IMG/VR virus record: IMGVR_UViG_3300008116_000011
Span: 110,438 to 174,437 of that record
Direction: 5' to 3' (one strand)
From: a virus
DNA: 64,000 nucleotides
Shown here: positions 4,084-57,764 of the stretch, one piece after another
Layout: every line of letters begins with the position of its first letter
How positions within the stretch are numbered: position 1 is the stretch's first letter
Position numbers and translations under genes: made by a program
The notes under the pieces: generated by a model
Database searches by the model: none
Told to the model about the DNA's origin: nothing
The model's input: only the letters and a program-made list of their open reading frames with translations

Positions 4084-4404
4084 TTACATAAGATCCCTTA
4101 ACCATTGCAATACTTCCCTTAATTCATCATCTTTTAAATGATATATATCTTCAGAAGTAATATAACCTTTTTCATCAAAAGCATCAATAAAACCATATTC
4201 TAATCCTATACGCTCTAATTCCTCGCGTAAAACATTATAATACCCCACATATGGATCACCATCCCACTGATGTTCAGCTTTACGAGCTAAATTATTAAAT
4301 AAATCAACTATACCTAGGAATTGTGGTTGTACAGGTACAACTTTAGCCTCATTAATTCCTGCTAGTTTTTGCAGGCGTTGAGCTTCTGTGATGTACTGTT
4401 TCAT
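4084..4404 (-). CDS. Hypothetical protein with shared leader MKQYITEAQRLQKLAGINE-AKVVP (putative capsid-internal cargo)
   Basis: Leader shared with the ORFs ending at 40966, 41298, 49546 and 57384. Confidence 0.7.
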   Translation of the reverse strand: MKQYITEAQRLQKLAGINEAKVVPVQPQFLGIVDLFNNLARKAEHQWDGDPYVGYYNVLREELERIGLEYGFIDAFDEKGYITSEDIYHLKDDELREVLQWLRDLM

Positions 4405-4415
4405 GGATATAAATA
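4358..4415 (-). repeat. Dispersed 58-bp repeat copy 1 (late-promoter motif + start + leader codons)
   Basis: 53/58 identical to 57718-57775 by manual alignment. Confidence 0.9.
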
Positions 4416-4850
4416 CTAGATCTCTACTATCTTGTAGATCTTAGTGTGTACTTTCCTTAAACCACCGTCTTGAGTAAGCAATATAGTATTGCGGTGATCC
4501 AACCAATTAACTCTATAATTAGTATCTAATATACCTCCGTTTAATTCACGAATTAATGCATTAAGAGCATTAATTGTATATAATGTATTACTTTCTTTTT
4601 TGCGATGCAGCAATATTGTATTGGAAAGAGCATTTTGTGAATTGTTATTCACAATATCAATGTTGTAAGTAAGAATTAATTCATCTGTATCTGGTGATTC
4701 CAATACAAATATTTTATTATATAAAATAGCATAACGCGTAGTTAAGCTATTTAATGTCTCATCTAATCTGTTGTGCTCAATAAAGGTGCAAAATAATTTA
4801 TTTCCCGCCATTTCATCAATAAGAATGTTCTCAAATTCATAACTGGTCAT
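4416..4850 (-). CDS. Hypothetical protein (start probably 4850 rather than 4877)
   Basis: ORF track. ATG at 4850 overlaps an ATATTTAT motif. Confidence 0.6.
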   Translation of the reverse strand: MTSYEFENILIDEMAGNKLFCTFIEHNRLDETLNSLTTRYAILYNKIFVLESPDTDELILTYNIDIVNNNSQNALSNTILLHRKKESNTLYTINALNALIRELNGGILDTNYRVNWLDHRNTILLTQDGGLRKVHTKIYKIVEI

Positions 4851-4883
4851 AAATATGGGGTGTTCTAGTGTAGACATTATGTT

Positions 4884-6161
4884 TTAGTTTAATCCGTTAT
4901 AGTTAGTTCCTGTTTTTACTCGTACAGGGTATTGGAGTTTAGCGATAAGTTCATTGATTTTTTGCGTTTCTTCACGCGATACATCAATAAGCACAGAATC
5001 GTATGTGTATAGTATTATACGTGATTTTAATGGTCTAAATTCATTAAATAATGAATAAAATTGTGTGACATTCTGCGAAGTCTCATAATTCTGAATGTAG
5101 TAGTTTAATATTTTTTGTGGGTTAGGGTTGTCAATATCTTTTAGTCTAAAGCGTTTACCAGATAGCATTTCAATAAACCCACTATAGTTAATAGTGTCCC
5201 ATAGATCTTCGGTAAATGCTTGTATATTTTTAAAAAATGGTTTACTTTGCAATTCAGGTCTAATACCTCCATACAAATTTTGGAATGTTATTTCTTTAAC
5301 TTTAGATGTATCGGGGTTGTTTAGTATTTTTCCTATTTGACTATATACACTTGTTTCTTTATCAAACTTGTAGTCTACAATTGTACCAAGAAGACGCGGA
5401 TGGTACCCGTTAAAGTCAATTTCAATAAATAAATCGTTGTGTGGTATAAAACATTCACGTTCACCATTTTCTTTATTTAAGGCAGCAAAGTTTATACCAT
5501 TGAAGCTATTAGAAGGGCGCCCAGTGAGAGTAAATAAATTATAAGAAGTGTAAATAACTCCTTGTTTGACTGAAAAATGCGGTGTAAGGTGGTTTTCATG
5601 ATACTTAATAAAACATGTTTTATCTAATTTAATACCTTCTTTTTCTATCTTAAAAAACACCTCGATTGCTTTATTCATAGCATCAGTGTTTTTAAGTAGG
5701 TAAGGTTTTACTACATCATAAATATTCTCACAATACTCATAATGTTTAGAGATAGGTATAAGCTCATTAACATTTTTTAAAGAACCATGCTCACGATAAA
5801 AATTAGAGATAATTATTGGTTCGCATTTATCAAAATCAAACCTACTATTTTCTGTTAAAGCATAATGAAATGAGGCATCATTAATTTTACCACTAAGAAA
5901 ATATTTAGTATACTTTGCATCAACAGCATACAATTCCTTTTCGGATAGATATTTTTTAATTGTTTGCCATTTTAAACTAAGCGATTCACTATGCTTAATA
6001 CAAAATATATAACCTTTACTATTAAATGGCTTTACATACACAAGTGAAACTTCGGCAATAGCAGGATGATAATTGTTGTTATTTGTAATTATATGAACAA
6101 AACATTTATCAAAGGGAGGTATGTGTTGTAACTGTTCTTCTTTCTCAATAATATAAAACAT
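4884..6161 (-). CDS. Compact family A DNA polymerase-like protein
   Basis: TLTGRPSN (TGRxS), motif A EIDFNGYHPR, motif B KEITFQNLYG, motif C LYTYDSVLID. Confidence 0.8.
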   Translation of the reverse strand: MFYIIEKEEQLQHIPPFDKCFVHIITNNNNYHPAIAEVSLVYVKPFNSKGYIFCIKHSESLSLKWQTIKKYLSEKELYAVDAKYTKYFLSGKINDASFHYALTENSRFDFDKCEPIIISNFYREHGSLKNVNELIPISKHYEYCENIYDVVKPYLLKNTDAMNKAIEVFFKIEKEGIKLDKTCFIKYHENHLTPHFSVKQGVIYTSYNLFTLTGRPSNSFNGINFAALNKENGERECFIPHNDLFIEIDFNGYHPRLLGTIVDYKFDKETSVYSQIGKILNNPDTSKVKEITFQNLYGGIRPELQSKPFFKNIQAFTEDLWDTINYSGFIEMLSGKRFRLKDIDNPNPQKILNYYIQNYETSQNVTQFYSLFNEFRPLKSRIILYTYDSVLIDVSREETQKINELIAKLQYPVRVKTGTNYNGLN

Positions 6162-6180
6162 AACCTTTATCTTTATACAT

Positions 6181-6212
6181 TAAATGTATGTATAAAACTT
6201 TAGGTTACCAAA
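6181..6212 (-). promoter_or_regulatory. Class A promoter for the polymerase
   Basis: TTTG(GTAACC)-N20-TACATTTA. Confidence 0.7.
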
Positions 6213-6673
6213 AATTCTCTTAACCCTGGCATTTGTTGATTGGCTTCATCTAACGTTGTTGTATTAGGATTGTATTGTATTACCTGATAATCTGAAGCTG
6301 ATTTATTTGTTAATTCATTGTATGCTTTTTGATCTATTTCTTTTATAAGGATGTTTGGATTAGTTAAGTCTTTATAGAAATATCTTATCTCACTTCCTTT
6401 TGTATTAAAAACAGAACCTGCTTTTGTAGGTAAAGTACCAGCAGCTAATGCACCGGCAGCAGCTGCAGCAGCTCCTAAAAGATTATATTTTTCTAATGGT
6501 TTAGAATTTTCAGTATATGTTTTGCCACTAAAATATTTGTTACCATTTATTATACTGTAGAACCCAATGTATGGAAGTTTTGATCGTACAAAACGTAAAG
6601 AAATATTTTTTCCAATACCAGTACCATTGGTATATTGATTTTCTACAATTTTATTTTTTGGCACTTGAATCAT
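6200..6673 (-). CDS. Hypothetical protein, last gene of the baseplate cluster
   Basis: ORF track. Start overlaps the stop of the upstream 1302-aa gene. Confidence 0.6.
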   Translation of the reverse strand: MIQVPKNKIVENQYTNGTGIGKNISLRFVRSKLPYIGFYSIINGNKYFSGKTYTENSKPLEKYNLLGAAAAAAGALAAGTLPTKAGSVFNTKGSEIRYFYKDLTNPNILIKEIDQKAYNELTNKSASDYQVIQYNPNTTTLDEANQQMPGLREFLVT

Positions 6674-24878: not shown

Positions 24879-25112
24879 TTATTTAAGCCATTTGTTTTCA
24901 GGACATGACTCTTTATCTTCCGCAAATATTTTTTTATTTAGTGGACATCCACATAAATTACAGTAATAAAAATCAATAAGTGTAGTATTTTGCTTACGAT
25001 GCTCACAACCATTACATATTTCGGCTCTATGTTTAGCTTTTTCAAGAGCCTCAGGACTAGGATTAGCTGCTGTTATCCAAGCATTTGCTATTTCTTTGAA
25101 TTTTTTAAACAT
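24879..25112 (-). CDS. Small Cys-rich putative metal-binding protein
   Basis: R..ICNGC ... CNLCGCPL ... CPENKW. Confidence 0.7.
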   Translation of the reverse strand: MFKKFKEIANAWITAANPSPEALEKAKHRAEICNGCEHRKQNTTLIDFYYCNLCGCPLNKKIFAEDKESCPENKWLK

Positions 25113-37067: not shown

Positions 37068-38741
37068 TTAAGCAATACCAAGGGCGTTTAAGCCATTAAC
37101 AAACACTTTACCATAGAATTCAGGACGTACCATTTTCTTAGCGTAACGAGTCATGATACCTTTTCTTGGTACGAAAGTTTCTGGATCGTACACAAGAGGG
37201 GTCATCAACAATGGTACATAAGGAGCATAAACAGCACCTGATTCAAGGAACTGAGCACCTTTGTAACCCATTAAGATCACGTTATTGCTGAAGTAAGGGT
37301 TAACATATACTTTGAAACGAGAGTTCAAAGAACCGATCTTTTGGCTACCGAAGTTAAACACTTTCTCAAGATCAGCACCTGCATCAGAAGCATATCCTGG
37401 GATAGACTGCATGATAGTAGCGATCTGAGGAGAGATAACTAAGAAGTTAGCTTGACCACGAAGAGTCTTTTGTAAGATCTTGTTAGATACAGATTGTAAT
37501 ACAGTACCCAATGTTGCAAACCAACCACCTTGTGTGTTATAGAAACCACCAGTTGTAGTAGAAGTTTGAACGAAAGTTGAACCATTCCACAATTTGTTGT
37601 TTTCAGCTGACCAGTAACCAATAGTAGCTGCTTCTTCAGTTAACATAGAAAGGATTTCTAAGTCGATTTCCATTGCAATGTACTGAGAAAGAAGACCTGT
37701 TAATTCCGCTTCAGCGTCGATGTTCTGATAAGCGTTAAGGTCTTGAGCTAATTCTGGTGTCCATTGAGCCTTTAATTTACGAGTCTTAGCAACAATAGCA
37801 TCAGATTTTAACTGGATATTGATTGTTGGGATGTCGATTTGAGCAGGATCAGCGGCATTCGGAATAGCGATGTTAGTATTGTCAGCTTCGAAATCACCAC
37901 GTAAAGCAGGAGTTGTTTGCTTATTGTAGTACAATTCGATTGAACCAGAAGAGGTTGAACCAGTTAATGGGAAATTAACTACGAATTGTAATGCAGTAGC
38001 ACCACTACCACTCTGATAGTTAGTGAACTGTTGTAATACTACAGGAGCAGCAACTACAGAGCTACTTGGAATCCAAGCTTGTACTGACAAGAAGTCAGGT
38101 AAAGCTAAGTTAGAAGCTAATTGAGCATCAGATACATTGATTACATATAATGAACCAGTAGAAGACTCATAACGAGAATCCCAATCAACATCAGCTAAAG
38201 AATTAACTAAAGATGCAGAATAAGTAACAGATGCAGAGAATTGGTTAATTGAATAACCATATCTACCTTGACCATAAAGACCACCTGTTGGATCTACGTT
38301 AGTGATGTCATAATCAGTTGCCTGAACATCAGCTAATGAACCATAAAGTGATTTACCTTGCTGGAAAGGAGTTTTGTTATTACCATACTGGAAATCCAAG
38401 TAGAATACGAGGCCAGAAGGCATAGACATTGGTTGAACTGAAACGAAGTCTTTAGCTACGATTTCAGCAAATACACGGCGAACGAGTGGTAATGCGATAC
38501 CAGCCCAGTTTTCACCAGTTCCACCAAGCATAGAGTTGGTACCAGCAGTAATGTTGGTAGACTCAACTACTAATTGCTTAGCTTGGTTCTCAAGGATCAC
38601 AGCCATATTGTTTTTTTCAATTTCGCTGCCAATGCCCTCAAGAAGACCGCTCTTACTCCATTTGGTAGCAACCTTAGCAGCTTCTGCTTGTTGGCTCTTC
38701 CATGGATTAGCGCTTTCTAAAAGCATGTTTAAATTTTCCAT
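37068..38741 (-). CDS. Major capsid protein (T4 gp23-like)
   Basis: LENQ, LPLVRR, VQPM..PSGL.F, KTRKLKA.WT.E.AQDL, EIDLEI, YAPYVPL, P.KG.MTRY. Confidence 0.97.
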   Translation of the reverse strand: MENLNMLLESANPWKSQQAEAAKVATKWSKSGLLEGIGSEIEKNNMAVILENQAKQLVVESTNITAGTNSMLGGTGENWAGIALPLVRRVFAEIVAKDFVSVQPMSMPSGLVFYLDFQYGNNKTPFQQGKSLYGSLADVQATDYDITNVDPTGGLYGQGRYGYSINQFSASVTYSASLVNSLADVDWDSRYESSTGSLYVINVSDAQLASNLALPDFLSVQAWIPSSSVVAAPVVLQQFTNYQSGSGATALQFVVNFPLTGSTSSGSIELYYNKQTTPALRGDFEADNTNIAIPNAADPAQIDIPTINIQLKSDAIVAKTRKLKAQWTPELAQDLNAYQNIDAEAELTGLLSQYIAMEIDLEILSMLTEEAATIGYWSAENNKLWNGSTFVQTSTTTGGFYNTQGGWFATLGTVLQSVSNKILQKTLRGQANFLVISPQIATIMQSIPGYASDAGADLEKVFNFGSQKIGSLNSRFKVYVNPYFSNNVILMGYKGAQFLESGAVYAPYVPLLMTPLVYDPETFVPRKGIMTRYAKKMVRPEFYGKVFVNGLNALGIA

Positions 38742-38763: not shown

Positions 38764-39888
38764 TTATTTAATGTTTGCTAACTTTTTCATCCTAGCAATG
38801 AAGTCGTTACTTTCAACAATTGCTTGTTTTTGTGGAGCAACGCCTGCTGCTTTAGATGCAAATCCTAAAGATTCTTTGATATGAGCTTTTCCAGATTTAG
38901 TAGCAAATGTTTCGTTTAATGATTCATAAACAAGTTTTGCTTCTTTAGCTGATTCAGCTTTATCAAATGCTTGTACAACCTTAATTTTTTGTGATTCAGT
39001 TAAGTTTTTAGACTTAAAGATTTTGTTAACATAAAGTAACTTAGCGTTTAACAAGTTAACTTCTTGAAGTTCTTGACGAAGAGTATTTACAGTTTCAAGA
39101 GCTAAATTTAGATCTTCCTGCATTTTTTTCTTCTTCTTGTAATCTTCAACTCCTTCTTCTTCAGCAGTGTCTTTTTTATCACCACGTTTAGAAGCAGGAA
39201 CGTCACCTTTGTTACCACCGTACTTTTTGTGTTTTTTACCTTCAGTAAGCTCGGTTTCTTCATCTAACAATTCAGCTAGAATTTCATCGAGGTTTACTTC
39301 TTCAATGTCTACAACTTCATCATCGGCTGTGTCAGGTAACTCATCAGACATTTTCATATCCGCAGATACGTCTATGTTTGCGTTACCATCACCACCCATT
39401 TCTTGAGAAACTATGTCGCGGATCATAGCTTCTAATTCATCTATGGAAAGTTCAGATACTTCTTTTTCTTCCTCTTCTGATTCTTCTTCGTCGTCTTCTA
39501 CATCTTCAACGTCTTCTTCGGCTTCGATTTCTTCTTCATCTTCAGCCTTTTTAGCTTCGTTTAATTCTGCATCAAGTTCGGCGAGAATTTCATCAAGGTC
39601 GATTTCGGCGATTGAATTATCGTCGTCATCATAATTCATACCTGACATTCCTTCCATTTTTTCTTTAGCCATTTCAGCTTCGATGTCATCAGTCATCTTG
39701 TCATCTAATTCATCGATCATGTCATCTTCTGTCAAGTCGTCCATCTTTTCTTGCAATCTTGCATTGAACATAGATGTTAAACGTGGCATAAAAGCTTCTT
39801 CAAGAGCGAGTTTAGCTTGAGCAAGAGCAGTTTCGCGAACAGCTTTAGCGTCAGCAATGGCCTCCTTTAAAAGGTCTTTTGTGTTCAT
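38764..39888 (-). CDS. Prohead scaffold/core protein (gp22-like)
   Basis: Very acidic coiled coil directly upstream of the capsid gene; many LxE sites; C-terminal RMKKLANIK. Confidence 0.85.
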   Translation of the reverse strand: MNTKDLLKEAIADAKAVRETALAQAKLALEEAFMPRLTSMFNARLQEKMDDLTEDDMIDELDDKMTDDIEAEMAKEKMEGMSGMNYDDDDNSIAEIDLDEILAELDAELNEAKKAEDEEEIEAEEDVEDVEDDEEESEEEEKEVSELSIDELEAMIRDIVSQEMGGDGNANIDVSADMKMSDELPDTADDEVVDIEEVNLDEILAELLDEETELTEGKKHKKYGGNKGDVPASKRGDKKDTAEEEGVEDYKKKKKMQEDLNLALETVNTLRQELQEVNLLNAKLLYVNKIFKSKNLTESQKIKVVQAFDKAESAKEAKLVYESLNETFATKSGKAHIKESLGFASKAAGVAPQKQAIVESNDFIARMKKLANIK

Positions 39889-40043: not shown

Positions 40044-40454
40044 TTATTCAAAAGCTCTTTGGTAAGATTTAGCTGCTTCTTTTAAAGAGCTAGCGGCCCA
40101 TTTAAGTTGATATGCTGTTTCACTTAGATTATCTAATTTATTACTAATTTTTTCTAATTCACGTACATTATCAGGAATATCAAATATATCATATGGTTCA
40201 TATATATCAAAATATTCTTCAAATAATTTTTTTAAAACGTTTTCTGTATTTTCTAGATTTTGTTTAAGAGTTTCTAGTTGAGATGGATTGTTGATAACAT
40301 CACTTATACTTAAACTAGATAATTGATCCGCATAAGATTGAACTTTATCTGAAAAGAAATTTTCTTCTTTTTGAGCTTTAGCTACTAAATCATCTATGCT
40401 TTTTCTAGGAGGTGTTACTCTAGCTTCTTTTAGTATGTCATGAAGTTTAATCAT
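40044..40454 (-). CDS. Hypothetical protein with MIKLHDILKE-ARVTP leader
   Basis: ORF track; leader shared with 55391..57010. Confidence 0.65.
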   Translation of the reverse strand: MIKLHDILKEARVTPPRKSIDDLVAKAQKEENFFSDKVQSYADQLSSLSISDVINNPSQLETLKQNLENTENVLKKLFEEYFDIYEPYDIFDIPDNVRELEKISNKLDNLSETAYQLKWAASSLKEAAKSYQRAFE

Positions 40455-40587: not shown

Positions 40588-40959
40588 TTATTGTAAGTTA
40601 ACTAATTTATATTTGGTTGAATATAATAAATTTACTACGTTATCTATTTCGTTTTGAATAAAACTATCTGCTAAATTTGGTGCTTGTCTTAAAGCACATA
40701 CAATTTGAATTAACTTATCAAAATAAGCTACAATATTTGCACCGTCACAATTATTATCTAAGTTAACTACCGGTTTAAATTTAATTAAACCATATTTTCC
40801 TTGATATGATTCTACTAAACCATCAATTAAATCAACTATATCTTCATAATATTTTTGAAGTGCTTTGTGAGCAGCATAAGCACCAGGACCACTTACACCT
40901 AAATGAAATACGTGTGCTTGAGTTCTAGAGTGCATTAATATCGATGCTAATTCTTCCAT
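40588..40959 (-). CDS. Ferritin/Dps-like four-helix protein (DUF5856-like)
   Basis: HVFHL...AAHKAL..YY......D.LVE.YQG pattern. Confidence 0.65.
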   Translation of the reverse strand: MEELASILMHSRTQAHVFHLGVSGPGAYAAHKALQKYYEDIVDLIDGLVESYQGKYGLIKFKPVVNLDNNCDGANIVAYFDKLIQIVCALRQAPNLADSFIQNEIDNVVNLLYSTKYKLVNLQ

Positions 40960-40965
40960 GTTGTT

Positions 40966-41292
40966 TTATTTTGTCTCTTTTAATCCATAAGGTATACCTA
41001 ATACTCCATGAACTGCTCTTCTAAATGCTTTTTGAGTTTCCATTTGAATTGCTTTCATTACAAGTTCTTGTAAAGCAGGATTATTAATTAATAAAGGTAT
41101 TTTTCCATTTGAAGGATCATGATAAAATGCACTTAGTTTTATTCTCATCATTCCATGATCATTAATGTAAAGTTTAACAGATGGAACATCGTCCATTAAT
41201 TCTCGATCTGGAAGGTAATTGTGTTCTTCTTCATCAACAATTCCTGCTAATTCTTGCATTCTTTTAGATTCTGTAATGAATTGTTTTGACAT
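40966..41292 (-). CDS. Hypothetical protein with leader MSKQFITESKRMQELAGI
   Basis: Shared leader family. Confidence 0.65.
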   Translation of the reverse strand: MSKQFITESKRMQELAGIVDEEEHNYLPDRELMDDVPSVKLYINDHGMMRIKLSAFYHDPSNGKIPLLINNPALQELVMKAIQMETQKAFRRAVHGVLGIPYGLKETK

Positions 41293-41297: not shown

Positions 41298-41747
41298 TTA
41301 TTTGTATGGGTTTTCCTTTGCTTTATTCCAATAAATTAAACTATCTTCACCAATAGAAAATTCATTAGAATGATTTTTTATATAATCTTCAGCATATCTC
41401 TTTAAAACATCAGCAGCTTCTGCTCCTGTCATGTCGCTAGAACCGAATGCAAATTTTTTAGTTCTATCATTTATTGAACTTCCTAAATCTAATTTTTTTT
41501 CATCACTCATTTTATTAAGAACGGGTCTGATGTTTTTTTCATAGAATGCTATTTGAGCTTTTCTATCAGCTTGTTGTTTTTGATCTAGTTGATGCACTTT
41601 AACTCCACCTAATATAGTAGCAGCTGTTAGTCCTAATCCAATAAGCCAATCTTTAAAACCTTCGTCTATTGTTTCTTCTTGATTTTCAGCAATAATGCCT
41701 GCTAGTTTTTGCATTCTTTTTGCTTCGGTAATAAATTGCTTTGACAT
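41298..41747 (-). CDS. Hypothetical protein with leader MSKQFITEAKRMQKLAGI and one hydrophobic segment
   Basis: Shared leader; WLIGLGLTAATILGGV follows IDE. Confidence 0.65.
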   Translation of the reverse strand: MSKQFITEAKRMQKLAGIIAENQEETIDEGFKDWLIGLGLTAATILGGVKVHQLDQKQQADRKAQIAFYEKNIRPVLNKMSDEKKLDLGSSINDRTKKFAFGSSDMTGAEAADVLKRYAEDYIKNHSNEFSIGEDSLIYWNKAKENPYK

Positions 41748-41759: not shown

Positions 41760-42401
41760 TTAATATCCAGGTAATTCACAAGTACAGAAACCAGCGCGAT
41801 TGCAAAGGATTTCTGTTACTAGTTCGTTAATTTTATCTAATTTCTTTTGTTCTTGTTTATTATATTGATTATATTGTTTAGATTCACTAACAATTTCCAT
41901 AAACGCACCTTGTGTTGATGGAGTTGATACGAAATCCCAACATAATAATTCAAAATCGGGTTGTACTTCAACAGTCTCACCGATTTGTTTTACAGAACCC
42001 ATACCACGAGATGAAATACCAATAGTAATACCTGCAATTAACAATGCTTTTAAAATATTACCTGATGGTGTTGGTAGTACTTCAATTTTTCCCATTACAT
42101 CATCTTTATCCCACCATAAATCTTTAATGTTATGACATACATTTTTTAAGTTGATGATTGGAGATTCTGGGTGGTCTAATTCACCTAGTGCTCTATTTTC
42201 TTTAATGTATGTGTCTTTATATTTTTGTACTTCTCTTTCAAGAGTATCTTTAGGATATACACGACCATTACCATTTTTTGCTTCAGCACGTTGTACCAAA
42301 CCTTGAACAATAAGACGTCCACCGTTGTTTTTAATAGATTCCTCCAACATTGATGGAGTAATATTAAAAGTAGTAATACGCTCTATTAATAGTTCTTTCA
42401 T
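41760..42401 (-). CDS. Prohead maturation protease (gp21-like)
   Basis: NGNGRVYP, GELDHP, GISSRG.GS, DFVSTPS. Confidence 0.95.
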   Translation of the reverse strand: MKELLIERITTFNITPSMLEESIKNNGGRLIVQGLVQRAEAKNGNGRVYPKDTLEREVQKYKDTYIKENRALGELDHPESPIINLKNVCHNIKDLWWDKDDVMGKIEVLPTPSGNILKALLIAGITIGISSRGMGSVKQIGETVEVQPDFELLCWDFVSTPSTQGAFMEIVSESKQYNQYNKQEQKKLDKINELVTEILCNRAGFCTCELPGY

Positions 42402-45997: not shown

Positions 45998-47860
45998 TTA
46001 TATATCTTTGATATTTGATTCGTCGAGCAATGAAGAATTGTTACCCTTTTGATCAAATACATTAGACTTTTTAAACATTTCCTCAAGCATCTTTTTATTT
46101 TGAGCATATACCGCTTTAGTATTTTCTAAAGCTAGTGGTGAACCACCTTTAGGTTCAGGAGCTCTAGCAGAATCCGGGTGAAGATCTACTTCTTTACCTA
46201 ATGGATCCTTACCTAACACGCGCTTTTGAGTGTTATAAACAGATGTTTTCTCTTGAGGACGCCCAATAGGGTTAGTCTCATCATAGGCAGGCGGTACTCC
46301 GACCCCGTTACGACCTTTACCATACAATGAGGCTAAATCATGTGGCGTTCCATATGATTGTCCACTAGTTAACGGGTCATTTCCTTCGTTTTCAATTTGT
46401 GATAGACGGAACATGCGTTTTTTATCTTCAACTACTAAATCACGCATTTCCTCATATTTGTCATCACTCATATGGAATAGATAATCATAAATGTAGTCAG
46501 TTGGGAACAAACTAGCATCCATAATATTTTTAGCTAAGTCAACCTTTTCTTTCATCAACGCAATTCTTTCTTGATCGTAAACGATAGAAGGAGTCGTTAA
46601 TTCTAATTCAAAGTTTGTTAAATTCTCATCAGTATAACCTTGAGAATATAAATGTACTAACGCGATTTTAGTTAATTCACTAACAACAATACGTTGTATA
46701 CGCTCAATTGTACGAGCAAAACGAATATCTTGTTGTGCTAGTGTAGATTTACCTTCAACATCAGCTTCATATCCTAAGAATGCCTTAGGAACTTTCATAG
46801 CAGCTAACATTTTATCTCTTAAATAAACAACATCTTCAATTGCATTATACTCAAGACCAGGTAATGTATCAATTTTAGTATTTGTATTTCCACCTCTAAC
46901 TGGTATGTAGAAATCTTCATTTACATTCATCATGTTATAACGAAGGTTATATTCACCAGTTTTAGGATCAGTAAATGGAGTACGTTGAGTTTGTGTTTTC
47001 AACTTTTCCATAAACTGAGGGATTTCGTTTGGTGGAATGTTTCCGGTATCAACGTAGTAAACACGGCGTTGAGGTGCTCTCAAAATACGGTGAATTAACA
47101 TTGCATCTTCCATCAATGCTAATTGCTTAAATATTTTACGAGCAGGTTCAATATATGAACGACCATAAGGAAGGAAATTATAATCTCCTAATAGTCTAAA
47201 GTTTGCTATTTCAAAGTTTTGGAATACAACATCGTTATCTGATGATGGGCTTATAATTCCAGAGTATGCAGCGTTTGGTGACACTTTAAATTGCACATAT
47301 GCTGGATTTTTAGGGTCAAGTCCTTCTTCTCTAATTACATTATACACATTGAGAGGAATTACTTGATAAACACCATATTTTTCTGCAATGTGGAGGTGTA
47401 GATATAAGTCACCGTATTTACACATTGAGCGAACCCAACCCCAAAGATTAAATTCAATATTTAATACATCATAGAATAGATTGTATAATATTCTTTGAAT
47501 ATTTTCGTCAGGTGATTTGATAGCTAATACTTCACCAGCACCATTTTTAAGTGTAGATTCATCAGCTACAATATCTAATACAGAAGCTACGATTGGATCA
47601 CCATCCATTACTTCGTAGTCATTATATAATTGAGGTCTTAATACAGTATAATTAGAATAAGGAGCATTACCAACATAAGTACCTAAACCACCAGTATATA
47701 TGCGTTGGTACCTGTCAGGGTACATGTTTGTTTGTACAACTCCTGTTGATTGTATATGGTCGGTATCAATTACTGTTACTTGACTACCTCCAACATTGCG
47801 TATAATTACGTCAGTTGAAAATAATCGTTTGAGTCTACCAAATAAAGATGTGTCTATCAT
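45998..47860 (-). CDS. Portal protein (gp20-like); start probably MIDT at 47860
   Basis: PYGRS..E.AR, MEDAMLIHR..RAP.RRVYY.D.GN.P, EDFYIPVRG, IDTLPG. Confidence 0.95.
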   Translation of the reverse strand: MIDTSLFGRLKRLFSTDVIIRNVGGSQVTVIDTDHIQSTGVVQTNMYPDRYQRIYTGGLGTYVGNAPYSNYTVLRPQLYNDYEVMDGDPIVASVLDIVADESTLKNGAGEVLAIKSPDENIQRILYNLFYDVLNIEFNLWGWVRSMCKYGDLYLHLHIAEKYGVYQVIPLNVYNVIREEGLDPKNPAYVQFKVSPNAAYSGIISPSSDNDVVFQNFEIANFRLLGDYNFLPYGRSYIEPARKIFKQLALMEDAMLIHRILRAPQRRVYYVDTGNIPPNEIPQFMEKLKTQTQRTPFTDPKTGEYNLRYNMMNVNEDFYIPVRGGNTNTKIDTLPGLEYNAIEDVVYLRDKMLAAMKVPKAFLGYEADVEGKSTLAQQDIRFARTIERIQRIVVSELTKIALVHLYSQGYTDENLTNFELELTTPSIVYDQERIALMKEKVDLAKNIMDASLFPTDYIYDYLFHMSDDKYEEMRDLVVEDKKRMFRLSQIENEGNDPLTSGQSYGTPHDLASLYGKGRNGVGVPPAYDETNPIGRPQEKTSVYNTQKRVLGKDPLGKEVDLHPDSARAPEPKGGSPLALENTKAVYAQNKKMLEEMFKKSNVFDQKGNNSSLLDESNIKDI

Positions 47861-47874: not shown

Positions 47875-49455
47875 TTATCCTAATAACCAACTAATATCTT
47901 CAGATCCATGGTCAGTAGGTATTTTATAAGGATTTGGTCGTCCACCACCAAAAGCATTATATGAATTCATATGTCCCCTGTCAACTGAAAAACCAGACAT
48001 TATTGCTCTGTCTTGTTCTATATTACTTTTTCTAAATCTTAATGCAGTATCGCGCAAATATAGTCCCATAGAAAATGACATTACTAAATCATCATTGTAT
48101 CCATCTTGAGCTTGTGCTTTACTATTTTTCCAAATGAAAACCTTCATTTCTTCTATTAATCGTTTTGAGCGTATCACACATGATTTTTCATGAGCGTATT
48201 CTCTAAATTTTTCAATCATTAATGGTCTAGTTTTTACAGATGTTGTAAAACCAGCTACTAGATTATTATTATTCTCATATCGTCTAGCCCATTGGTCAGA
48301 TGTCATTGCATCTTGTTTTGGAGAGTAATACAAATTTCTATATCCTCTATCAATAGCTGTTTGTACTGTATCCCAACCTACGTTAGCATTTTCTATTGAT
48401 AATAAAGCATCATTATATTCTGCTGCTAAACCTACTAACATATGTCCATAATCACGAGTACCAATTTGGCCTCTATATTCTGCTACTTGAGTTGCTGATT
48501 CGACATCAAAAACATGACATGCAGAATAATCTTTTCCATCTCCTCTAGCTACGTCGGCTACTACTAAGTAACTTTTATTATAATCTGGTTGTTCCCATAT
48601 CCATAAGTTACCATCTACTCCTCTTTTTTCAAGAGGATCCATCATATTAGCTTCAAACCAACCTATAATTTCAGGCTCAAATACTGTATCACCTGATGTT
48701 GCAAAGTCACAATCACACTCTTGAGCAGCTAATCTAATTCCTAAATCATTATCTTGTCTATCTCTCCAAATTTGATCTCTTTCGGGGTGTACACTCCAAG
48801 GTAATCTAATAGGTACAAATGAATTATCTCCAATTTCTGATTTTTGCCATGTTTGGTGAAACCAGTTACCTGTGCCATTGGGGGTAGATAATGCTATACA
48901 ACCACCACCCGTAGCTAATGTTTGTTGAGCAGAAGCAAATATTTCATCAATGTTTTCAATGAACGCAGCCTCATCTATTATAAGTAAAGATACAGCTTCA
49001 GATCTACCAGCATCACCTGCTGCTGAAACTGCTTTTACTTGAGACCCATTTGCCAATTTAAGTAAAAGTTTATTGTTCTCCAAAGGTTTTTCAACCCCCT
49101 TTAGCCATGAAGGTAGATTATCGTACATAAATCGTACTTTAGTAACCATGTTTTTAGCTGTGTCTTGTTTAGTTGCGATACACAACACGTTTTTATCTTT
49201 ATGGAATAACATCATCCATAAAGAGAAACCAGCTACAAGAGTAGAGATACCTAACTGGCGAGATTTAAGTACTATATTATAGTTATTTTTCTGGAATTGG
49301 TATAATACTTTTTCTTGGAAAGGATATAAGTTAAATTGTATGCGACCCCTAGTTGGGTGTTGAATCATACAATATTTCTTCATGAAATGGGCAGGATCAG
49401 TCATACATTTAATGTATTCCTGCTTGATTATGTCTTTAATATTTTGATCGCTCAT
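47875..49455 (-). CDS. Terminase large subunit (gp17-like)
   Basis: KSRQLGIST, LIIDEAAF, STPNG, ADVARG.G.DYS, DDLVMS. Confidence 0.96.
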   Translation of the reverse strand: MSDQNIKDIIKQEYIKCMTDPAHFMKKYCMIQHPTRGRIQFNLYPFQEKVLYQFQKNNYNIVLKSRQLGISTLVAGFSLWMMLFHKDKNVLCIATKQDTAKNMVTKVRFMYDNLPSWLKGVEKPLENNKLLLKLANGSQVKAVSAAGDAGRSEAVSLLIIDEAAFIENIDEIFASAQQTLATGGGCIALSTPNGTGNWFHQTWQKSEIGDNSFVPIRLPWSVHPERDQIWRDRQDNDLGIRLAAQECDCDFATSGDTVFEPEIIGWFEANMMDPLEKRGVDGNLWIWEQPDYNKSYLVVADVARGDGKDYSACHVFDVESATQVAEYRGQIGTRDYGHMLVGLAAEYNDALLSIENANVGWDTVQTAIDRGYRNLYYSPKQDAMTSDQWARRYENNNNLVAGFTTSVKTRPLMIEKFREYAHEKSCVIRSKRLIEEMKVFIWKNSKAQAQDGYNDDLVMSFSMGLYLRDTALRFRKSNIEQDRAIMSGFSVDRGHMNSYNAFGGGRPNPYKIPTDHGSEDISWLLG

Positions 49456-49545: not shown

Positions 49546-50544
49546 TTAATCTTCATAATAAGGTTCTTCCTCATAATCTTCAGGAGGTTGTTCTTCATTA
49601 TTTATTCTATCCATTTCTTTAATAGCATATGCTTTAGCATCTTCTATACTATCAAACATTTCTGAGTCTTTAACTTTAGCATTTACTTCATCAGAACGCA
49701 CCATGTATTTTTTATTAGGAAATTTAAATATAATAACAAGATGGTAATCATTTTGCCATGCTATATTATATGAATAAGGGCGTTCATAATATCCTATAAC
49801 AACTCCATCTACTGGGTCGTAATATTCTTCCCCAATATCTGTGCTATCTGCTTTCCAACTATCTGGGAGTGAAATATTAAGAAGATTTTCTGGTTTAGCT
49901 ATAGATGTAGTAGGTACAATTTTAGATTCATTGGTACCAGCATATTCTTGAGCAGCATCTGCTAAAGAGTCTGATACTGCTTCTCTATCACTAGTATCAT
50001 AATCTATGCCCCAAAAAGTATAAATAATTCCATATGATGTTGCTATTTTATCATCATACTCTTCTTTATCTATATCACTTAGATTATTATATCTATCATC
50101 AGGTATAGTCCACTCATCTTCAGTCTTATTATAAGTAAATCCAGCATCTAATAAATTTTTAACTAATTGAGGAGCAAAGTTATCCATTACTCTAAAGTGA
50201 GTAATTATGTTAGTATAATCTGTAATAGTGTCTACAATGTTTTCTTCATCATTACTAGAATCCTCCTCAATTATATCTATTAAAGAATCTGCTATATCGT
50301 TGTTTACTTGAGGACTATCAACTGTTTCTTTAAATCCTCGATAAAGAATATCATTACTATCTATTTCATTAAAATATTCTTGTTTAGTATCTGCAATAAT
50401 ATTTATTATATTTTGAATATCATTTCCTGTAAATCCATATTTTTTTAGAGTAAACAGTTTATTATTACCAGGTACAACTCTAGCCTCATTAATACCTGCT
50501 AATTTTTGCAAACGTTGAGCTTCTACTATGAATTGTTTTTTCAT
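49546..50544 (-). CDS. Acidic two-module putative cargo polyprotein
   Basis: Leader ..EAQRLQKLAGINE-ARVVP and internal TNE-SKIVP at residue 206. Confidence 0.65.
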   Translation of the reverse strand: MKKQFIVEAQRLQKLAGINEARVVPGNNKLFTLKKYGFTGNDIQNIINIIADTKQEYFNEIDSNDILYRGFKETVDSPQVNNDIADSLIDIIEEDSSNDEENIVDTITDYTNIITHFRVMDNFAPQLVKNLLDAGFTYNKTEDEWTIPDDRYNNLSDIDKEEYDDKIATSYGIIYTFWGIDYDTSDREAVSDSLADAAQEYAGTNESKIVPTTSIAKPENLLNISLPDSWKADSTDIGEEYYDPVDGVVIGYYERPYSYNIAWQNDYHLVIIFKFPNKKYMVRSDEVNAKVKDSEMFDSIEDAKAYAIKEMDRINNEEQPPEDYEEEPYYED

Positions 50545-50545: not shown

Positions 50546-51217
50546 TTATTTAACTAGTAAAAATGTTAATCCGCCTATTGCTAAACCTGCTCCTATTTTA
50601 GTTAATTGCATTTTAAGCTTTAATTTTTTATTTTGTGTTTGAAGTTGATCATATTGTTCTTGCCAATCTTTAATTTGTTTTTCACGTACAGCAATCATAA
50701 TTTTATTATTAGAATCTTTTTCTTCAAATTTCATTATAATACTGTCTTTAACAAATATTCTTTCTTCGTTTAAAGCAATAACACTATCTTTTATTACTAG
50801 TGTTTGTTTAGCTCCATCTAATTCAACTAAATCTTTAGCAGCAGCTACAAGTACTGGTTGTGCTACTGGGAGTGGATTTGTAATTGTATCTTCTGGGTAG
50901 CGATTATTGAATGAAGTAATGAGTTCAGTTTCAGAATATGTGTCAATTTTGCCTTTAGATGAATCAACCCATTTAGTAACAACAATAACTTTGGCTTTAA
51001 CTTTACTTAATTGATTTTGTAAATCATATTCAAGATGTTCTAAAGCACCTATTTGTAATTCTTTTTGATGATTGTCTTCTTTTAAAGAATCAACAACATA
51101 ATTTAAACTATCTTGTGTATTTTTAAATTCAACAAATAAACTGTTATCGTTACATTTGTTTACAAAAATCCAAGCTAATAAAACTACAACAACTAATGGT
51201 AAAACTAATTTTTTCAT
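50546..51217 (-). CDS. Membrane-anchored coiled-coil protein (spanin-like candidate)
   Basis: N-terminal hydrophobic segment followed by Cys, coiled coil, C-terminal hydrophobic segment. Confidence 0.5.
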   Translation of the reverse strand: MKKLVLPLVVVVLLAWIFVNKCNDNSLFVEFKNTQDSLNYVVDSLKEDNHQKELQIGALEHLEYDLQNQLSKVKAKVIVVTKWVDSSKGKIDTYSETELITSFNNRYPEDTITNPLPVAQPVLVAAAKDLVELDGAKQTLVIKDSVIALNEERIFVKDSIIMKFEEKDSNNKIMIAVREKQIKDWQEQYDQLQTQNKKLKLKMQLTKIGAGLAIGGLTFLLVK

Positions 51218-51220: not shown

Positions 51221-52348
51221 TTATCCTTTATAATTTACAAGTTTAATCATACGCTCGTATACATTCTCATAATCTTTAAATGTAGGTTCATAACTAACAT
51301 CTTCAACACCAGTATCTTCCATAATCTCTTCATCATCTGTGTCTATAATTTCTTCATCAGATTTTTCTTCAGGTGGAAGTGTAGGTTCAATAGATTTTCC
51401 TAACTTTTTAGCAATTATATTATATAATTTATTAGCATTTACAGAATCAAATTTAAAACCTAAAATTTCAAGTACTTTATCTTGTACTTCCGGTTCTAGT
51501 TGTTTGATTTTTATTACTAATTCTTCAAGTTTTTTATTTAAAATTTGTATAGATGATTCTTTACTTTGTTGTAGTGCTCTTTTATAATCAGCAGCACTTA
51601 ATTCGTCTCCATTATCTTCACGAAGTTCAGTAATACGAGCTCTAGAGTTTTTATATAATGAAACAATACTTTGAATTAAATCTCCATTATCAACTGTAAA
51701 CACAGTTGCTGATTGTGTTACAGGGTCAAAAGTAGTTTGAGATTTTTCTAAAGAACCCATATCAGGTTCTGTTTCTGGTTCAAAATCAGGAACATCTGTT
51801 ACTTCAGTGTCATCTATTTCTGCTCCTCCTTCAAAATCCTCTTCATCATCTGCTTCATATCCACCTTCAATTTCTTCTTCGTCACCTCCAGGAGTAGTAG
51901 TTGATGTAAAAACACCAGCATCACGTAATGCAGCGAGAACAGGATATAGTCGACGCATTTCTAAGCCATATTCTTGGGCTATTTTAGAAAAAGTAGTAGT
52001 ATTATTACCATCAGCAAGCATAGCATCAAGAATATCTAAAATACCGTTTAATTTAGTAGGACTTATTGGACCTCCTGTTTGTACATTTTCTGCTTTACTT
52101 CTAAAATCAGTAGCAATAGTAAATTCTTCAGCAGGACGTGCTAATTCAGTTACATTTAATTCTTCTAGTTCAACAGAACCACCAGCTCTAAGAGTTTTTT
52201 CAATATCTGTTCTTTCATCAGGTTTTAAAGTATTCCAATCTGGATCCCTTTTAGCAGGGTTAACAGCATTTTTTCCTGCATATCTTAGTTCACTTAATTT
52301 TGTACGGATTCGATCTTTAATATATTCTTTTAATTCGCTTTTTTTCAT
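51221..52348 (-). CDS. Acidic putative head-internal protein
   Basis: MKKSELKEYIK leader; C-terminal YERMIKLVNY resembles the scaffold tail. Confidence 0.55.
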   Translation of the reverse strand: MKKSELKEYIKDRIRTKLSELRYAGKNAVNPAKRDPDWNTLKPDERTDIEKTLRAGGSVELEELNVTELARPAEEFTIATDFRSKAENVQTGGPISPTKLNGILDILDAMLADGNNTTTFSKIAQEYGLEMRRLYPVLAALRDAGVFTSTTTPGGDEEEIEGGYEADDEEDFEGGAEIDDTEVTDVPDFEPETEPDMGSLEKSQTTFDPVTQSATVFTVDNGDLIQSIVSLYKNSRARITELREDNGDELSAADYKRALQQSKESSIQILNKKLEELVIKIKQLEPEVQDKVLEILGFKFDSVNANKLYNIIAKKLGKSIEPTLPPEEKSDEEIIDTDDEEIMEDTGVEDVSYEPTFKDYENVYERMIKLVNYKG

Positions 52349-52367
52349 TGTTTGTAGTTTGTGTCTG

Positions 52368-53429: not shown

Positions 53430-53433
53430 ATTA

Positions 53434-53464: not shown

Positions 53465-53466
53465 AT

Positions 53467-54807: not shown

Positions 54808-55265
54808 ATCGGTTTATTGTTTAATTTATTCCAAGTTAAATTTTTAATTTTTACTTTATCTTCAATATAATAAGTTTTATATGCTTTGATAGTATCTTCG
54901 TTTTTATATTCCTCAGGCATTGCTTGTGGTGGTGGTGTAAATCCATTATCAGGAATATTTGGTTCATTATCACGACACCATTCAATTACATCTTGTGTTT
55001 TGTGATGTTTACCATAACGTTTAGTAAATTCATAACATACTTCAAGACCATGTTGTACAAGCCAACGATAATGTTGAATTGATTCACGTACCCATTTAGT
55101 TGATGGGTGATTAAAATGAGCACGTTTATAAGGTGCTTCACCACCAACAGCCCAATGAGTAGTACATAACATTTGTGCTGATTCAATTTGCATTTTGCGA
55201 ATGTGGTCATCACAAAGTTCTTGTGCAGCAATTATTGGATTGTCATTAATGTAAAATATATTCAT
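54789..55265 (-). CDS. Pyrimidine-dimer DNA glycosylase-like protein
   Basis: MNIF..D..P...A...CD.H..KM..E.AQML, HPST.W, PQAMP. Confidence 0.75.
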   Translation of the reverse strand: MNIFYINDNPIIAAQELCDDHIRKMQIESAQMLCTTHWAVGGEAPYKRAHFNHPSTKWVRESIQHYRWLVQHGLEVCYEFTKRYGKHHKTQDVIEWCRDNEPNIPDNGFTPPPQAMPEEYKNEDTIKAYKTYYIEDKVKIKNLTWNKLNNKPIWIKEL

Positions 55266-55270
55266 AATTT

Positions 55271-55301
55271 TAAATATATTAATTTTTATTCGGTTTCCAA
55301 A
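55271..55301 (-). promoter_or_regulatory. Class A promoter
   Basis: TTTG(GAAACC)-N19-TATATTTA. Confidence 0.7.
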
Positions 55302-55302
55302 T

Positions 55303-55328
55303 TAAAGAAGCCCACCATTATGGTGGGC
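55303..55328 (-). terminator. Terminator-like hairpin
   Basis: gcccacca/tggtgggc stem followed by TTCTTT on the minus strand. Confidence 0.65.
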
Positions 55329-55390
55329 CACTACTCCAAATTATTTTATCTCTTGCGAGCGAACAGGCAATGAATCTGTTCTATATGTTA

Positions 55391-57010
55391 TTATTCCCAA
55401 TCTTTTTTTAATTCTTCCATCAATTCAACAGCACGTTTTTGAGCTCCATAGAATGAATTATATTCTCCTTCACTAATAAAATCACCAAAGGCATAATTCC
55501 CCATTACATTAAACTTGCCATTTATTTTTTTAAAAATATAAATAACATCTGAGTGGGTTTTATCCCACCCTTCCATAGGAGCTTCGTATGCTTCTATAAG
55601 TTCTCCATATGGATCATATGGGTCATATCCAAATTCTTCAGCATCTTCATCATAATTATTTTCATTATATTCATCTATACTACTTTTATCCCATTTAGAC
55701 CACCCATCAGGAGTTTTTATTGGGCTAGCAGGGACCACACGTGCTTCATCTAGATTATTTTTAAATGGAAATCCATCTGGTTTAGATGTTAGCCAATAAC
55801 TCATTTCTTGTCTAGCCCAATCTTCTACTTCTTGATCTGTAACCTTTGCTGCATCCTCAAATCTGTTAAATCCATCAAAGAAATAAGTAGAGGATTCATC
55901 ATATCCTTCTGAGTCATCCATAAATGAATCAACAGATTCAATTTCTTCAGGATCAATTACTGATTTAAGGTAATTAGCAATAGCTTCAGAGTTTATTTCT
56001 AGGTTTTTACTTCCATTTTTATTATAACTTAATGTAATATATTTAGGTTTCATTCCAACAGGCATAACACGTGCTTCACTTATTTCATCTAATTTTATAT
56101 CAGTAAATCTAGTAACATAATCTACAAACTCTTCAGTACAATCTTCACCATCAACATATATTTTTTTATATTTTTTATAGTAGTCTACCAATATATCACC
56201 TTCTCCTACAGTTACTGTGTTAACTACTAAACTTTCATTAGAAAACTTAGGGGTATTTATTTCATCTTTAGACATTATATCAAAACTATGAAAAAATTCA
56301 GGATCAACATCATAATAATCTTGAAGTTTTTTTACTAAATCTGCTCGTTTAAGTGATGCCATTGGAGCTGGGACTATACGTGCTTCAAGTAGATTTTTTT
56401 GCAATTCTCTTTGTGCATAATCTACAAATTCATTACTGGCAAAATAAGATTCAGAATCAGGAAATGAATCTGTGCCATAATATTCATTCTCTAATTTGTA
56501 ATATATTAAATCTTCTATATCTTTATATGAAAATTGTCCTTTGCTATCAACATATTCATTTTCATAATCACTACCATAGTACTTAGACACTAATTTTCTT
56601 ATATCACCAATATCAATAGAATCTAAGTAAGATCTCCAAAATAATCTAGCTAAATATAATTGTACTTCTTTATTATCTTCGACAAATTCAAGTAGTTCCT
56701 TATCAGTTAATAAACTAACATTAGCTCTAGTAACAATATCCGATTCACCTCCTCTTACAATTTCTGCGTTGGTTTCTATCATTTTAGATTTGATATACTT
56801 TTCAACTAAAGGACCCAATACTCTATCCTCAAACATTGCTTCAACTACTCCCATATTATTTCGATAATAATTGTTATCGGAAATAATATTAGCTATTGCC
56901 TTAGATATTATAGAATTAATCTGGTTGAAATGATCAGGACTTCCTCCGGAAAATGAAATACCTTTAGGTACAATACGTGCTTCTTTTAATATATCGTATA
57001 ATTTTTTCAT
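55391..57010 (-). CDS. Four-module acidic putative cargo polyprotein
   Basis: E-ARIVP, E-ARIVP, E-ARVMP and E-ARVVP at residues 10, 209, 312 and 422. Confidence 0.7.
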   Translation of the reverse strand: MKKLYDILKEARIVPKGISFSGGSPDHFNQINSIISKAIANIISDNNYYRNNMGVVEAMFEDRVLGPLVEKYIKSKMIETNAEIVRGGESDIVTRANVSLLTDKELLEFVEDNKEVQLYLARLFWRSYLDSIDIGDIRKLVSKYYGSDYENEYVDSKGQFSYKDIEDLIYYKLENEYYGTDSFPDSESYFASNEFVDYAQRELQKNLLEARIVPAPMASLKRADLVKKLQDYYDVDPEFFHSFDIMSKDEINTPKFSNESLVVNTVTVGEGDILVDYYKKYKKIYVDGEDCTEEFVDYVTRFTDIKLDEISEARVMPVGMKPKYITLSYNKNGSKNLEINSEAIANYLKSVIDPEEIESVDSFMDDSEGYDESSTYFFDGFNRFEDAAKVTDQEVEDWARQEMSYWLTSKPDGFPFKNNLDEARVVPASPIKTPDGWSKWDKSSIDEYNENNYDEDAEEFGYDPYDPYGELIEAYEAPMEGWDKTHSDVIYIFKKINGKFNVMGNYAFGDFISEGEYNSFYGAQKRAVELMEELKKDWE

Positions 57011-57012
57011 TC

Positions 57013-57372
57013 CTATCTTACAATATATTCTTGACCACCTACTTTAGCTGAGAGTATACTGCGTAGATCAATCATTCTATAACCGTTTTTTTGTGCATCA
57101 AATACAGGTAGTAGGTCTTTAGAAGCAGCATCATAAGGTAAATCACCACCTTTTAGATGTCGTCTAACACCTAAACGACCGTTTAGTGTTCTTGTAGAGC
57201 CATCAGTTCTTTTAACAAATGTTACAGTAAAAAATTCACCTTTACCTGAATTGCGAGGGTCTGTGGCTTTAATTTTATCAATTAATTCTTCACGACTAAT
57301 AGGAACTGCTTGTTCTTTAATAAGTCTTTTTACTTCAGTAAGAAGTTGTTGTTTAAATTGGCTAAGTTTCAT
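57013..57372 (-). CDS. Small SH3/WYL-like beta-barrel protein behind a helical leader
   Basis: FFTVTFVK..DGS.R....LGV...VFD....YR.I pattern. Confidence 0.6.
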   Translation of the reverse strand: MKLSQFKQQLLTEVKRLIKEQAVPISREELIDKIKATDPRNSGKGEFFTVTFVKRTDGSTRTLNGRLGVRRHLKGGDLPYDAASKDLLPVFDAQKNGYRMIDLRSILSAKVGGQEYIVR

Positions 57373-57383
57373 ACTAATATTAA

Positions 57384-57764
57384 TTAAACAGGAATATAAA
57401 GCATCATATCACCATTACCATATTCTATAATTTCTAAATCATATCCGGCAACAGTAAGTTGTTTTTTTAATTCATATACATCGTCTACAACCCAATCGTC
57501 AAATTCACCAGGATCATAATCATCTCTTTGAAGTTCACATGAAAGTTTAGAGGTTCCTGGGTCCATAGAAAAATGAAATCCTTGAGGAGTAGCATAAATA
57601 GTACCACCCCATTCATCAGTAGTAAATTCAGGGCCTATTGCTTCCCATTCTTCTGCAGATATTGAACCCTTAAGAGGGCGTTTCATCCTTTGAGGCACAA
57701 TTCTAGCTTCGGTAATACCTGCTAGTTTTTGCAAACGTTGAGCTTCTGTAATATACTGCTTCAT
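57384..57764 (-). CDS. Hypothetical protein with leader MKQYITEAQRLQKLAGITE-ARIVP (start probably 57764)
   Basis: Shared leader; class B motif at 57768-57775 lies inside the ORF-track extension. Confidence 0.7.
   Translation of the reverse strand: MKQYITEAQRLQKLAGITEARIVPQRMKRPLKGSISAEEWEAIGPEFTTDEWGGTIYATPQGFHFSMDPGTSKLSCELQRDDYDPGEFDDWVVDDVYELKKQLTVAGYDLEIIEYGNGDMMLYIPV

Follow-up and report, generated by a model that had tools for sequence, protein, structure and literature searches.

Why should five phage genes with otherwise unrelated products begin with the same short peptide? The question is raised by a 64,000-nt stretch of viral DNA, referred to here as the window (positions 110,438 to 174,437 of IMG/VR record IMGVR_UViG_3300008116_000011), the right-hand 64 kb of a phage genome that is complete at 174,437 bp, has 32% G+C and carries direct terminal repeats. 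Judged from its genes, the phage is an aquatic T4-type myophage; among deposited phages it is most closely related to Flavobacterium phage immuto and, at a greater distance, to Microcystis phage Mel-JY01, both of them cultured. Nearly all genes of the window lie on the minus strand, including the five leader genes, the scaffold gene and the prohead protease gene. We propose, with a probability of roughly 0.7, that the shared leader is a propeptide comparable to the capsid-targeting sequence (CTS) of T4, built from the C-terminal docking helix of the scaffold and removed by the head protease. The five genes encode the following putative cargo proteins.

4084-4404, minus strand: c4084, 106 amino acids (aa), N-terminus MKQYITEAQRLQKLAGINEAKVVP
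40966-41292, minus strand: c40966, 108 aa, N-terminus MSKQFITESKRMQELAGIVDEEE
41298-41747, minus strand: c41298, 149 aa, N-terminus MSKQFITEAKRMQKLAGIIAENQ
49546-50544, minus strand: c49546, 332 aa, N-terminus MKKQFIVEAQRLQKLAGINEARVVP
57384-57764, minus strand: c57384, 126 aa, N-terminus MKQYITEAQRLQKLAGITEARIVP

The five leaders read M-x-KQ[FY]I[TV]E[AS]xR[LM]Q[KE]LAGI. The original prediction, made from the sequence of the window, had described this leader without giving a strand; its motif is exact, and all five copies are on the minus strand. Written with a slash at each predicted cut, the leaders are MKQYITE/AQRLQKLAGINE/AKVVP in c4084 (residues 1-19, nt 4348-4404), MSKQFITE/SKRMQELAGIVDE/EE in c40966 (residues 1-21; the most divergent of the five, with V-D-E as its second site), MSKQFITE/AKRMQKLAGIIAE/NQ in c41298 (residues 1-21), MKKQFIVE/AQRLQKLAGINE/ARVVP in c49546 (residues 1-20) and MKQYITE/AQRLQKLAGITE/ARIVP in c57384 (residues 1-19). 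The junction (N/T)E-A(R/K)(V/I)VP, said to follow the leader in three of the five, is present in those three, and the form E/A[RK][VI]xP is found in addition in two genes without this leader, at 40044-40454 and 55391-57010. The strict motif is restricted to these five N-termini in six-frame translations of both the window and the 174,437-bp genome as a whole. LAGI alone is confined within the window to the five leaders and is found elsewhere in the genome in three unrelated places. When the genome was scanned with a hidden Markov model (HMM) of the leader, a check that had been suggested together with the prediction, the five leaders scored 42-45 bits and the next best match 6.9 bits.

Such a likeness could in principle reside in the DNA, as a translation-initiation or regulatory region or as the trace of a recent duplication, rather than in a selected peptide, and c4084 and c57384 do share the 11 nt preceding the ATG. 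The upstream regions of the five genes are otherwise unrelated, however, and the DNA likeness is only ~70 nt long and rich in differences, which are largely synonymous, indicating that selection acts on the leader peptide. The peptide is also kept in contigs with capsid proteins that share only about 50-57% identity with that of this phage, and it recurs in 1,938 protein clusters (described below). We therefore consider a nucleotide-level element very improbable.

The leader has its counterpart among the head genes, which are listed here together with one further protein of relevance.

37068-38741, minus strand: major capsid protein, gp23 family, 557 aa (Pfam Gp23, 1.1e-78)
38764-39888, minus strand: scaffold, at the gp22 position between the protease gene and the gp23-type capsid gene, 374 aa, acidic
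41760-42401, minus strand: prohead protease, gp21 homologue, 213 aa (Pfam Peptidase_S77, 1.9e-30; PHROG 207, 2.2e-60)
45998-47860, minus strand: portal protein, gp20 family (Pfam Portal_T4, 8.5e-68)
47875-49455: large terminase, by homology to relatives
51221-52348, minus strand: acidic protein of 375 aa ending ERMIKLVNYKG, a tail match by an after-the-fact pattern only

We scanned IMG/VR for DNA encoding R-M-Q-K-L-A-G-I and obtained at least 120 stretches. Among the matches listed, 94 of 126 occurrences of the octamer lie 1-4 residues before the stop of proteins of 300-470 aa, and about 30 of the 126 belong to small proteins, 6-11 residues from the initial Met. A gp23-type gene is located within 300 nt downstream of 84 of these 94 C-terminal carriers, which identifies the carriers as scaffolds. 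In about 150 related IMG/VR contigs, the scaffold at the gp22 position ends R-[MFW]-Q-K-L-A-G-I. We also collected 80 loci centred on protease homologues; 65 of them include the capsid gene, and in all 65 the scaffold ends [ILV]-x-E-x(3-8)-R-[MFWL]-[QKR]-x-[LI]-A-[GN]-[IL]. When a relaxed pattern was applied to 2.3 million translated residues, 69 hits were C-terminal and 16 N-terminal; the sole "internal" one lies 8 residues before a stop, and the motif is thus a terminal element. The octamer is essentially never internal and belongs to the C-terminus in scaffolds and to the N-terminus in other proteins. In about nine cases, the tag stands at the C-terminus of a protein that is not a scaffold. 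The tail is much better conserved across the clade than the scaffold bodies.

Both placements are found in immuto, where the scaffold-position protein ends …SRWQKLAGIIK and another protein starts …FRRMQKLAGIITE. The former (immuto_204, MW353175; 21628-22869 of locus L001) is annotated as "DNA polymerase phi-like protein"; by its position, N-terminal homology and tail it is a gp22-type scaffold, and the annotation is probably owed to an acidic low-complexity region. The full motif was not found in the scaffolds of T-even phages (gp22, …VYAKVASRF), cyanophage S-RIM2 or pelagiphage HTVC008M, and is therefore specific to this aquatic clade. The ends of these scaffolds (T-even …V-A-S-R-F, cyanophage …A-I-A-R-W-S-K and pelagiphage …A-I-S-R-V-K-S, from loci L202, L203 and L204) align with the F-I-A-R-M start of the tail here, so that a terminal element of the form hydrophobic-[AS]-R-[FWVM] may be an ancient feature of scaffolds of the gp22 type.

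The peptide might alternatively serve a function unrelated to the capsid, for example as an oligomerisation or host-factor-binding helix, the scaffold copy then being a coincidental convergence. This would suit the positions of 4084-4404 and 57384-57764, which lie outside the head-gene block beside replication-type genes; T4 internal-protein genes, however, likewise lie outside the head cluster, beside the lysozyme gene. Convergence would also have to account for an octamer that about 150 scaffolds and the N-terminal leaders have in identical form, that has no internal copies and that is flanked by protease sites in both settings. We regard this explanation as improbable.

The protease sites themselves form the second line of evidence. 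The assignment of 41760-42401 as the protease, part of the original prediction, was borne out by its membership of the gp21 family. It shares about 34% identity with T-even gp21 and 39-43% with the proteases of cyanophages and pelagiphages, and its N-terminus, MKELLIE/R, can be compared with the LIE-9 site of T4 gp21, which is self-cleaved in T4. In a sister lineage (L129, L136, L138, L140 and L167), the protease N-terminus contains L-H-E/A-K-L-S-P, a junction of the same type as that of the cargo leaders. The predicted cuts in the leaders of the window are ITE/A (or IVE/A) on the near side, followed by INE/A, ITE/A, IAE/N or VDE/E on the far side. Among 56 unique N-terminal tags, 49 have [ILV]-x-E 0-6 residues after L-A-G (11% expected for such an interval) and 45 have it 0-3 residues before the Arg. 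An [ILV]-x-E site also comes after 141 of the 145 N-terminal tags taken from a large protein library. Scaffold-type tails show the upstream site in 137 of 154 cases, mostly 6 residues before the Arg. By sequence, the flanking sites match the L/I-x-E rule of T4 gp21.

Because the motif always stands beside [ILV]-x-E sites, and scaffold and cargo would both be substrates, it could be a docking element (exosite) that marks substrates for the prohead protease rather than a packaging address. The capsid protein and other expected substrates nevertheless have [IL]xE sites without the motif; in the N-terminal propeptide region of the capsid protein, such triplets are LLE (7-9), LLE (33-35) and ILE (49-51), in addition to VVE. 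An exosite would not need a strictly terminal position, and although scaffolds of the gp22 type are cleaved in many places, the scaffold has the motif at its very end only. We give recognition by the protease alone little credence.

Structure predictions place the motif in comparable settings in scaffold and cargo. AlphaFold2 models of 64 scaffold C-terminal regions contain a confident three-helix domain, a 34-residue low-confidence linker that holds IVE/S, and a terminal helix, DFIARMKKL (118-126). The AlphaFold2 model of c57384 (predicted local distance difference test score, pLDDT, 80.5) has a leader helix at residues 7-14, disorder at 17-25 including the cut site, and a compact, well-folded alpha/beta body. 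In these models, the scaffold tail and the c57384 leader both look like a tethered helix. A docking prediction with the capsid protein (66-row alignment) and a 38-residue leader (40-row alignment) scored 0.00 with a poorly folded partner and without controls, and speaks neither for nor against binding.

The bodies behind the leader are indeed unrelated, as had been predicted: clustering of 56 tagged proteins by their bodies gave 46 unrelated groups, in which the five of the window are all singletons. A leader profile searched against 1.84 billion proteins retrieved 1,938 cluster representatives at an expect value (E) of 0.001 or better, nearly all with the tag at the N-terminus; among the best 150 of these 1,938, 136 have it only at the N-terminus as judged by motif position. 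A Pfam domain was detected in only 8 of 83 longer cargoes, as single cases of RecA, NT5C, HAD, PBECR4 nuclease, STAND NTPase and others. The tagged genes also turn over rapidly. The six closest relatives (protease 77-93% and portal 84-90% identical) keep the head genes in order and have none of the five cargoes, and one of the six has a different tagged gene elsewhere. N-terminal tags number five in this phage, 2 in immuto, none in Mel-JY01 and 0-2 in complete relatives. In immuto, whose host is Flavobacterium sp. LMO8, the tagged genes include immuto_188 and an ORF around position 25,061 of the record.

The five cargoes gave no Pfam or PHROG family. The body of c4084 (predicted mature part 87 aa, isoelectric point, pI, 4.5) has three homologues in 5.8 billion proteins, and the leader is kept in all three. 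In the c57384 family, the leader core is invariant in eight homologues whose bodies are 57-82% identical. The model of c57384 gave no Foldseek match at E 0.001 or better, and its best VIA match (Z 5.4) was below background; a secretion-chaperone-like lead did not hold up. The body of c49546 is very acidic (pI 4.1, 68 D+E), a structural search with it returned weak WGR-like matches only (template modelling, TM, score 0.35 or less), and its gene lies just upstream of the large terminase gene, which is the commonest site of tagged genes in relatives. The gene for c41298, whose body includes a moderately hydrophobic stretch, WLIGLGLTAATILGGV, starts 12 nt past the protease stop codon, and c40966 follows it after 5 nt, within the protease-scaffold interval. 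Neither was found in the six closest relatives.

Eight large tagged proteins (P0001, P0036, P0063 and five others; up to 1005 aa) have, besides the N-terminal tag, a second complete tag far downstream, with its own M-K-K and flanking sites. Each may be a polyprotein from which several cargoes are cut, or else the product of two genes that gene calling has joined.

Which partner would the tag bind? The gp23-family capsid protein is a candidate receptor, suggested by analogy with P22, phi29 and herpesviruses. A second type of leader in the window bears on this question.

40044-40454, minus strand: short-leader protein of 136 aa, MIKLHDILKE/ARVTPP, without LAGI, copying the scaffold N-terminus
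55391-57010, minus strand: short-leader protein of 539 aa, MKKLYDILKE/ARIVPK, acidic, copying the scaffold N-terminus

These leaders, M-x-K-L-[HY]-D-I-L-K-E/A-R-[VI]-x-P, resemble the scaffold start, MNTKDLLKE/A, and, like three of the LAGI leaders, end in the junction E/A-[RK]-[VI]-x-P. The pattern [DEHNQ][ILV]LKEA occurs at three places in the six frames of the genome (scaffold, 40044-40454 and 55391-57010), each time 4-5 residues after the Met. No Pfam family was found for 55391-57010. T-even phages offer a parallel, the CTS MKTYQEFI[AT]E/ resembling the gp22 N-terminus MLKEQLIAE/A. Mimicry of the scaffold N-terminus is, on this tiny sample, a lead. It is possible, if short of an even chance, that both ends of T4-type scaffolds serve as address labels and that unrelated genes carry copies of the C-terminal helix (R-M-Q-K-L-A-G-I) or of the N-terminal peptide (D-L-L-K-E/A), so that a simple terminal code sets the composition of the prohead core.

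The targeting function could also be the same while the receptor is the scaffold core and not the coat protein, the tail helix mediating scaffold-scaffold contacts and the cargo mimicking a scaffold end. That both ends are mimicked makes more sense if they contact one another or other parts of the scaffold, and the resemblance between the T-even CTS (MKTYQEFIAE) and the gp22 N-terminus (MLKEQLIAEA) points the same way, as does the co-purification of T4 internal proteins with gp22. On the other side, the scaffold C-terminal element binds the coat protein in the solved systems P22 and phi29, and a tail far better conserved than the scaffold bodies fits a conserved partner such as gp23. As an explanation by itself, a core receptor appears to us less likely than not.

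Several observations weigh against a targeting propeptide derived from the scaffold tail. The first concerns the resident scaffold, whose C-terminus the original prediction had likened to the leader. The protein ends QKQAIVESNDFIARMKKLANIK as stated (tail …IVESNDFIARMKKLANIK; nt 38767-38829 encode KQAIVE/SNDFIARMKKLANIK, and the N-terminus is MNTKDLLKE/AIADAK), but its RMKKLANIK differs from the R[LM]QKLAGI of the leaders, and the tail scores 2.1 bits (E about 37) against the leader HMM. At this score, the mimicry within one genome could be chance; it is the tails of the relatives that establish the likeness. The tail claimed for 51221-52348 is not borne out by its homologues: the protein ends in ERMIKLVNY as written, but its closest homologues (L122, L123) lack the tail, with one distant homologue (L158) ending LRKLQYYAGIIK, and we therefore did not accept it as an established tail carrier. 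That its end is a degenerate tail is doubtful from these comparisons. Second, tail and leader do not co-vary within contigs (4.79 versus 5.05 identities of 8, p=0.91), so the leaders were not recently copied from the resident scaffold, a result that fits a conserved receptor and mobile cargo genes. Third, the mature cargoes are mostly acidic (pI 4.1-4.7), whereas T4 internal proteins are described as basic. Fourth, the leader core RLQKLAGI equals the scaffold tail motif, and T4 gp22 has no counterpart of it; the T4 precedent thus covers the logic of the N-terminal propeptide and not the tail. Fifth, the T4 late promoter TATAAATA was not found upstream of any head gene and is not recognisably used at the cargo genes, which leaves the reading without support from timing. 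Over the whole genome, this consensus has 14 hits on the coding strand and 55 on the other, and together with its absence upstream of the head genes this means that the late transcription signals of the clade must differ from those of T4. Finally, a search for virion proteomes, N-terminal sequencing and binding data on this phage and on its relatives immuto and Mel-JY01 yielded none.

With these points taken into account, a targeting propeptide built from the scaffold tail remains our preferred reading, and it suggests the following course of events. During prohead assembly, the amphipathic helix x-R-[LM]-Q-K-L-A-G-I of a cargo would take the same receptor as the tethered tail helix of the scaffold. 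At roughly even odds, this receptor would be either the gp23-type capsid protein, through its inner face or its propeptide, or other subunits of the scaffold. Any protein with the helix at a free terminus would thereby be built into the core. The activated gp21-type protease would then cut at [ILV]-x-E on both sides of the helix, at I-T-E/A before it and at I-N-E/A, I-T-E/A or I-A-E/N after it, while the scaffold would be cut at I-V-E/S and its fragments would leave. The mature cargo would be left loose in the head and would presumably enter the host with the DNA.

The shared octamer of targeting tag and scaffold terminal helix leads to a concrete hypothesis, namely that the cargo competes for the receptor of the scaffold tail, and hints at how T4-type heads choose their contents. 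By a simple rule, a terminal R-M-Q-K-L-A-G-I flanked by [ILV]-x-E, packaged and probably injected proteins can be predicted for hundreds of aquatic T4-like phages that are uncultured. The rule also suggests a natural tag, removable by a protease, with which capsids could be loaded with proteins. If the code of both scaffold ends were true, the roughly 1,900 tagged clusters would be a large unexplored repertoire of virion-delivered proteins, many of them probably host-takeover or anti-defence factors.

Other small genes are found around the head genes. A 123-aa DUF5856 protein without the leader is encoded at 40588-40959 on the minus strand. In all six closest relatives, its homologue (71-87% identical) follows the protease gene directly, and in this phage the two tagged cargo genes c41298 and c40966 sit between them. 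Close relatives (L124-L127; for example 11294-11440 of L125) have a 48-aa extremely basic ORF (open reading frame; MAAKAKTSS…KRKRPGVHSK…) and an ORF of 87-91 aa between the DUF5856 and scaffold genes. Neither is present in the window, and both may encode further small head-internal proteins. In Mel-JY01 (L205, 13149-13376), a gene for ribosomal protein S21 (RpsU) is annotated between the prohead protease and scaffold genes. At 50546-51217 (minus strand) lies the gene of a 223-aa protein whose two terminal segments are hydrophobic and whose middle resembles a coiled coil; its neighbours are c49546 and the gene of the acidic 375-aa protein, and it is located just upstream of the terminase gene.

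The closest known system is that of T4, in which a CTS on internal proteins IPI-III and Alt is removed by gp21 (PMC9026906, PMC3012670, PMC9958956). This 10-residue N-terminal propeptide, cut at L/I-x-E, sends diverse proteins to the core and is enough to load foreign ones; it has affinity for the scaffolding core, and the internal proteins co-purify with gp22. A 2023 review of the T4 head states that the localisation of proteins to the scaffolding core "remains mysterious" and that the structure of the core is unresolved. The leader described here is likewise a short N-terminal element, probably a propeptide, common to otherwise unrelated and fast-evolving proteins and ending at L/I-x-E, and the phage has a homologous protease, a gene at the scaffold position, a capsid protein and a portal. 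The first eight residues of MKQYITE/A are similar to those of the T-even start MKTYQEFITE/A, a stretch too short for statistics. The leader differs from the T4 CTS in being twice as long, in having two flanking cut sites, in occurring also at C-termini and in preceding mostly acidic cargoes, and it is known here from sequence.

In its predicted architecture, the tail resembles the C-terminal coat-binding elements of the P22 (the helix-turn-helix of gp8) and phi29 scaffolds, with a short helical element at the extreme C-terminus, a flexible linker and conserved basic residues (R, K); no sequence relationship is claimed. The P22 scaffold leaves intact, whereas protease sites flank the tail here. 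In herpesviruses, the scaffold tail docks on the major capsid protein and the maturational protease cuts just upstream of it, at the M site; a protease-scaffold fusion carries the same tail into the procapsid, the sharing being achieved by nested genes. Here, by contrast, the tag stands as an independent module on numerous unrelated genes, in most cases at the other (N) terminus. Engineered P22 nanocages, into which cargo is loaded by fusion to the scaffold C-terminal domain (PMC9962691), and the cargo-loading peptides of encapsulins share the principle that a short scaffold-derived or shell-binding peptide loads arbitrary cargo into an HK97-fold shell. The nanocages are engineered, however, encapsulins are non-viral compartments, and the tags of neither are removed by a protease. 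The motif strings occur in no paper of the literature library that we searched. A portable CTS on diverse internal proteins is already established for T-even phages, while the identity of the tag with the scaffold tail, its use at either terminus, the double cleavage context and the breadth of its distribution are new.

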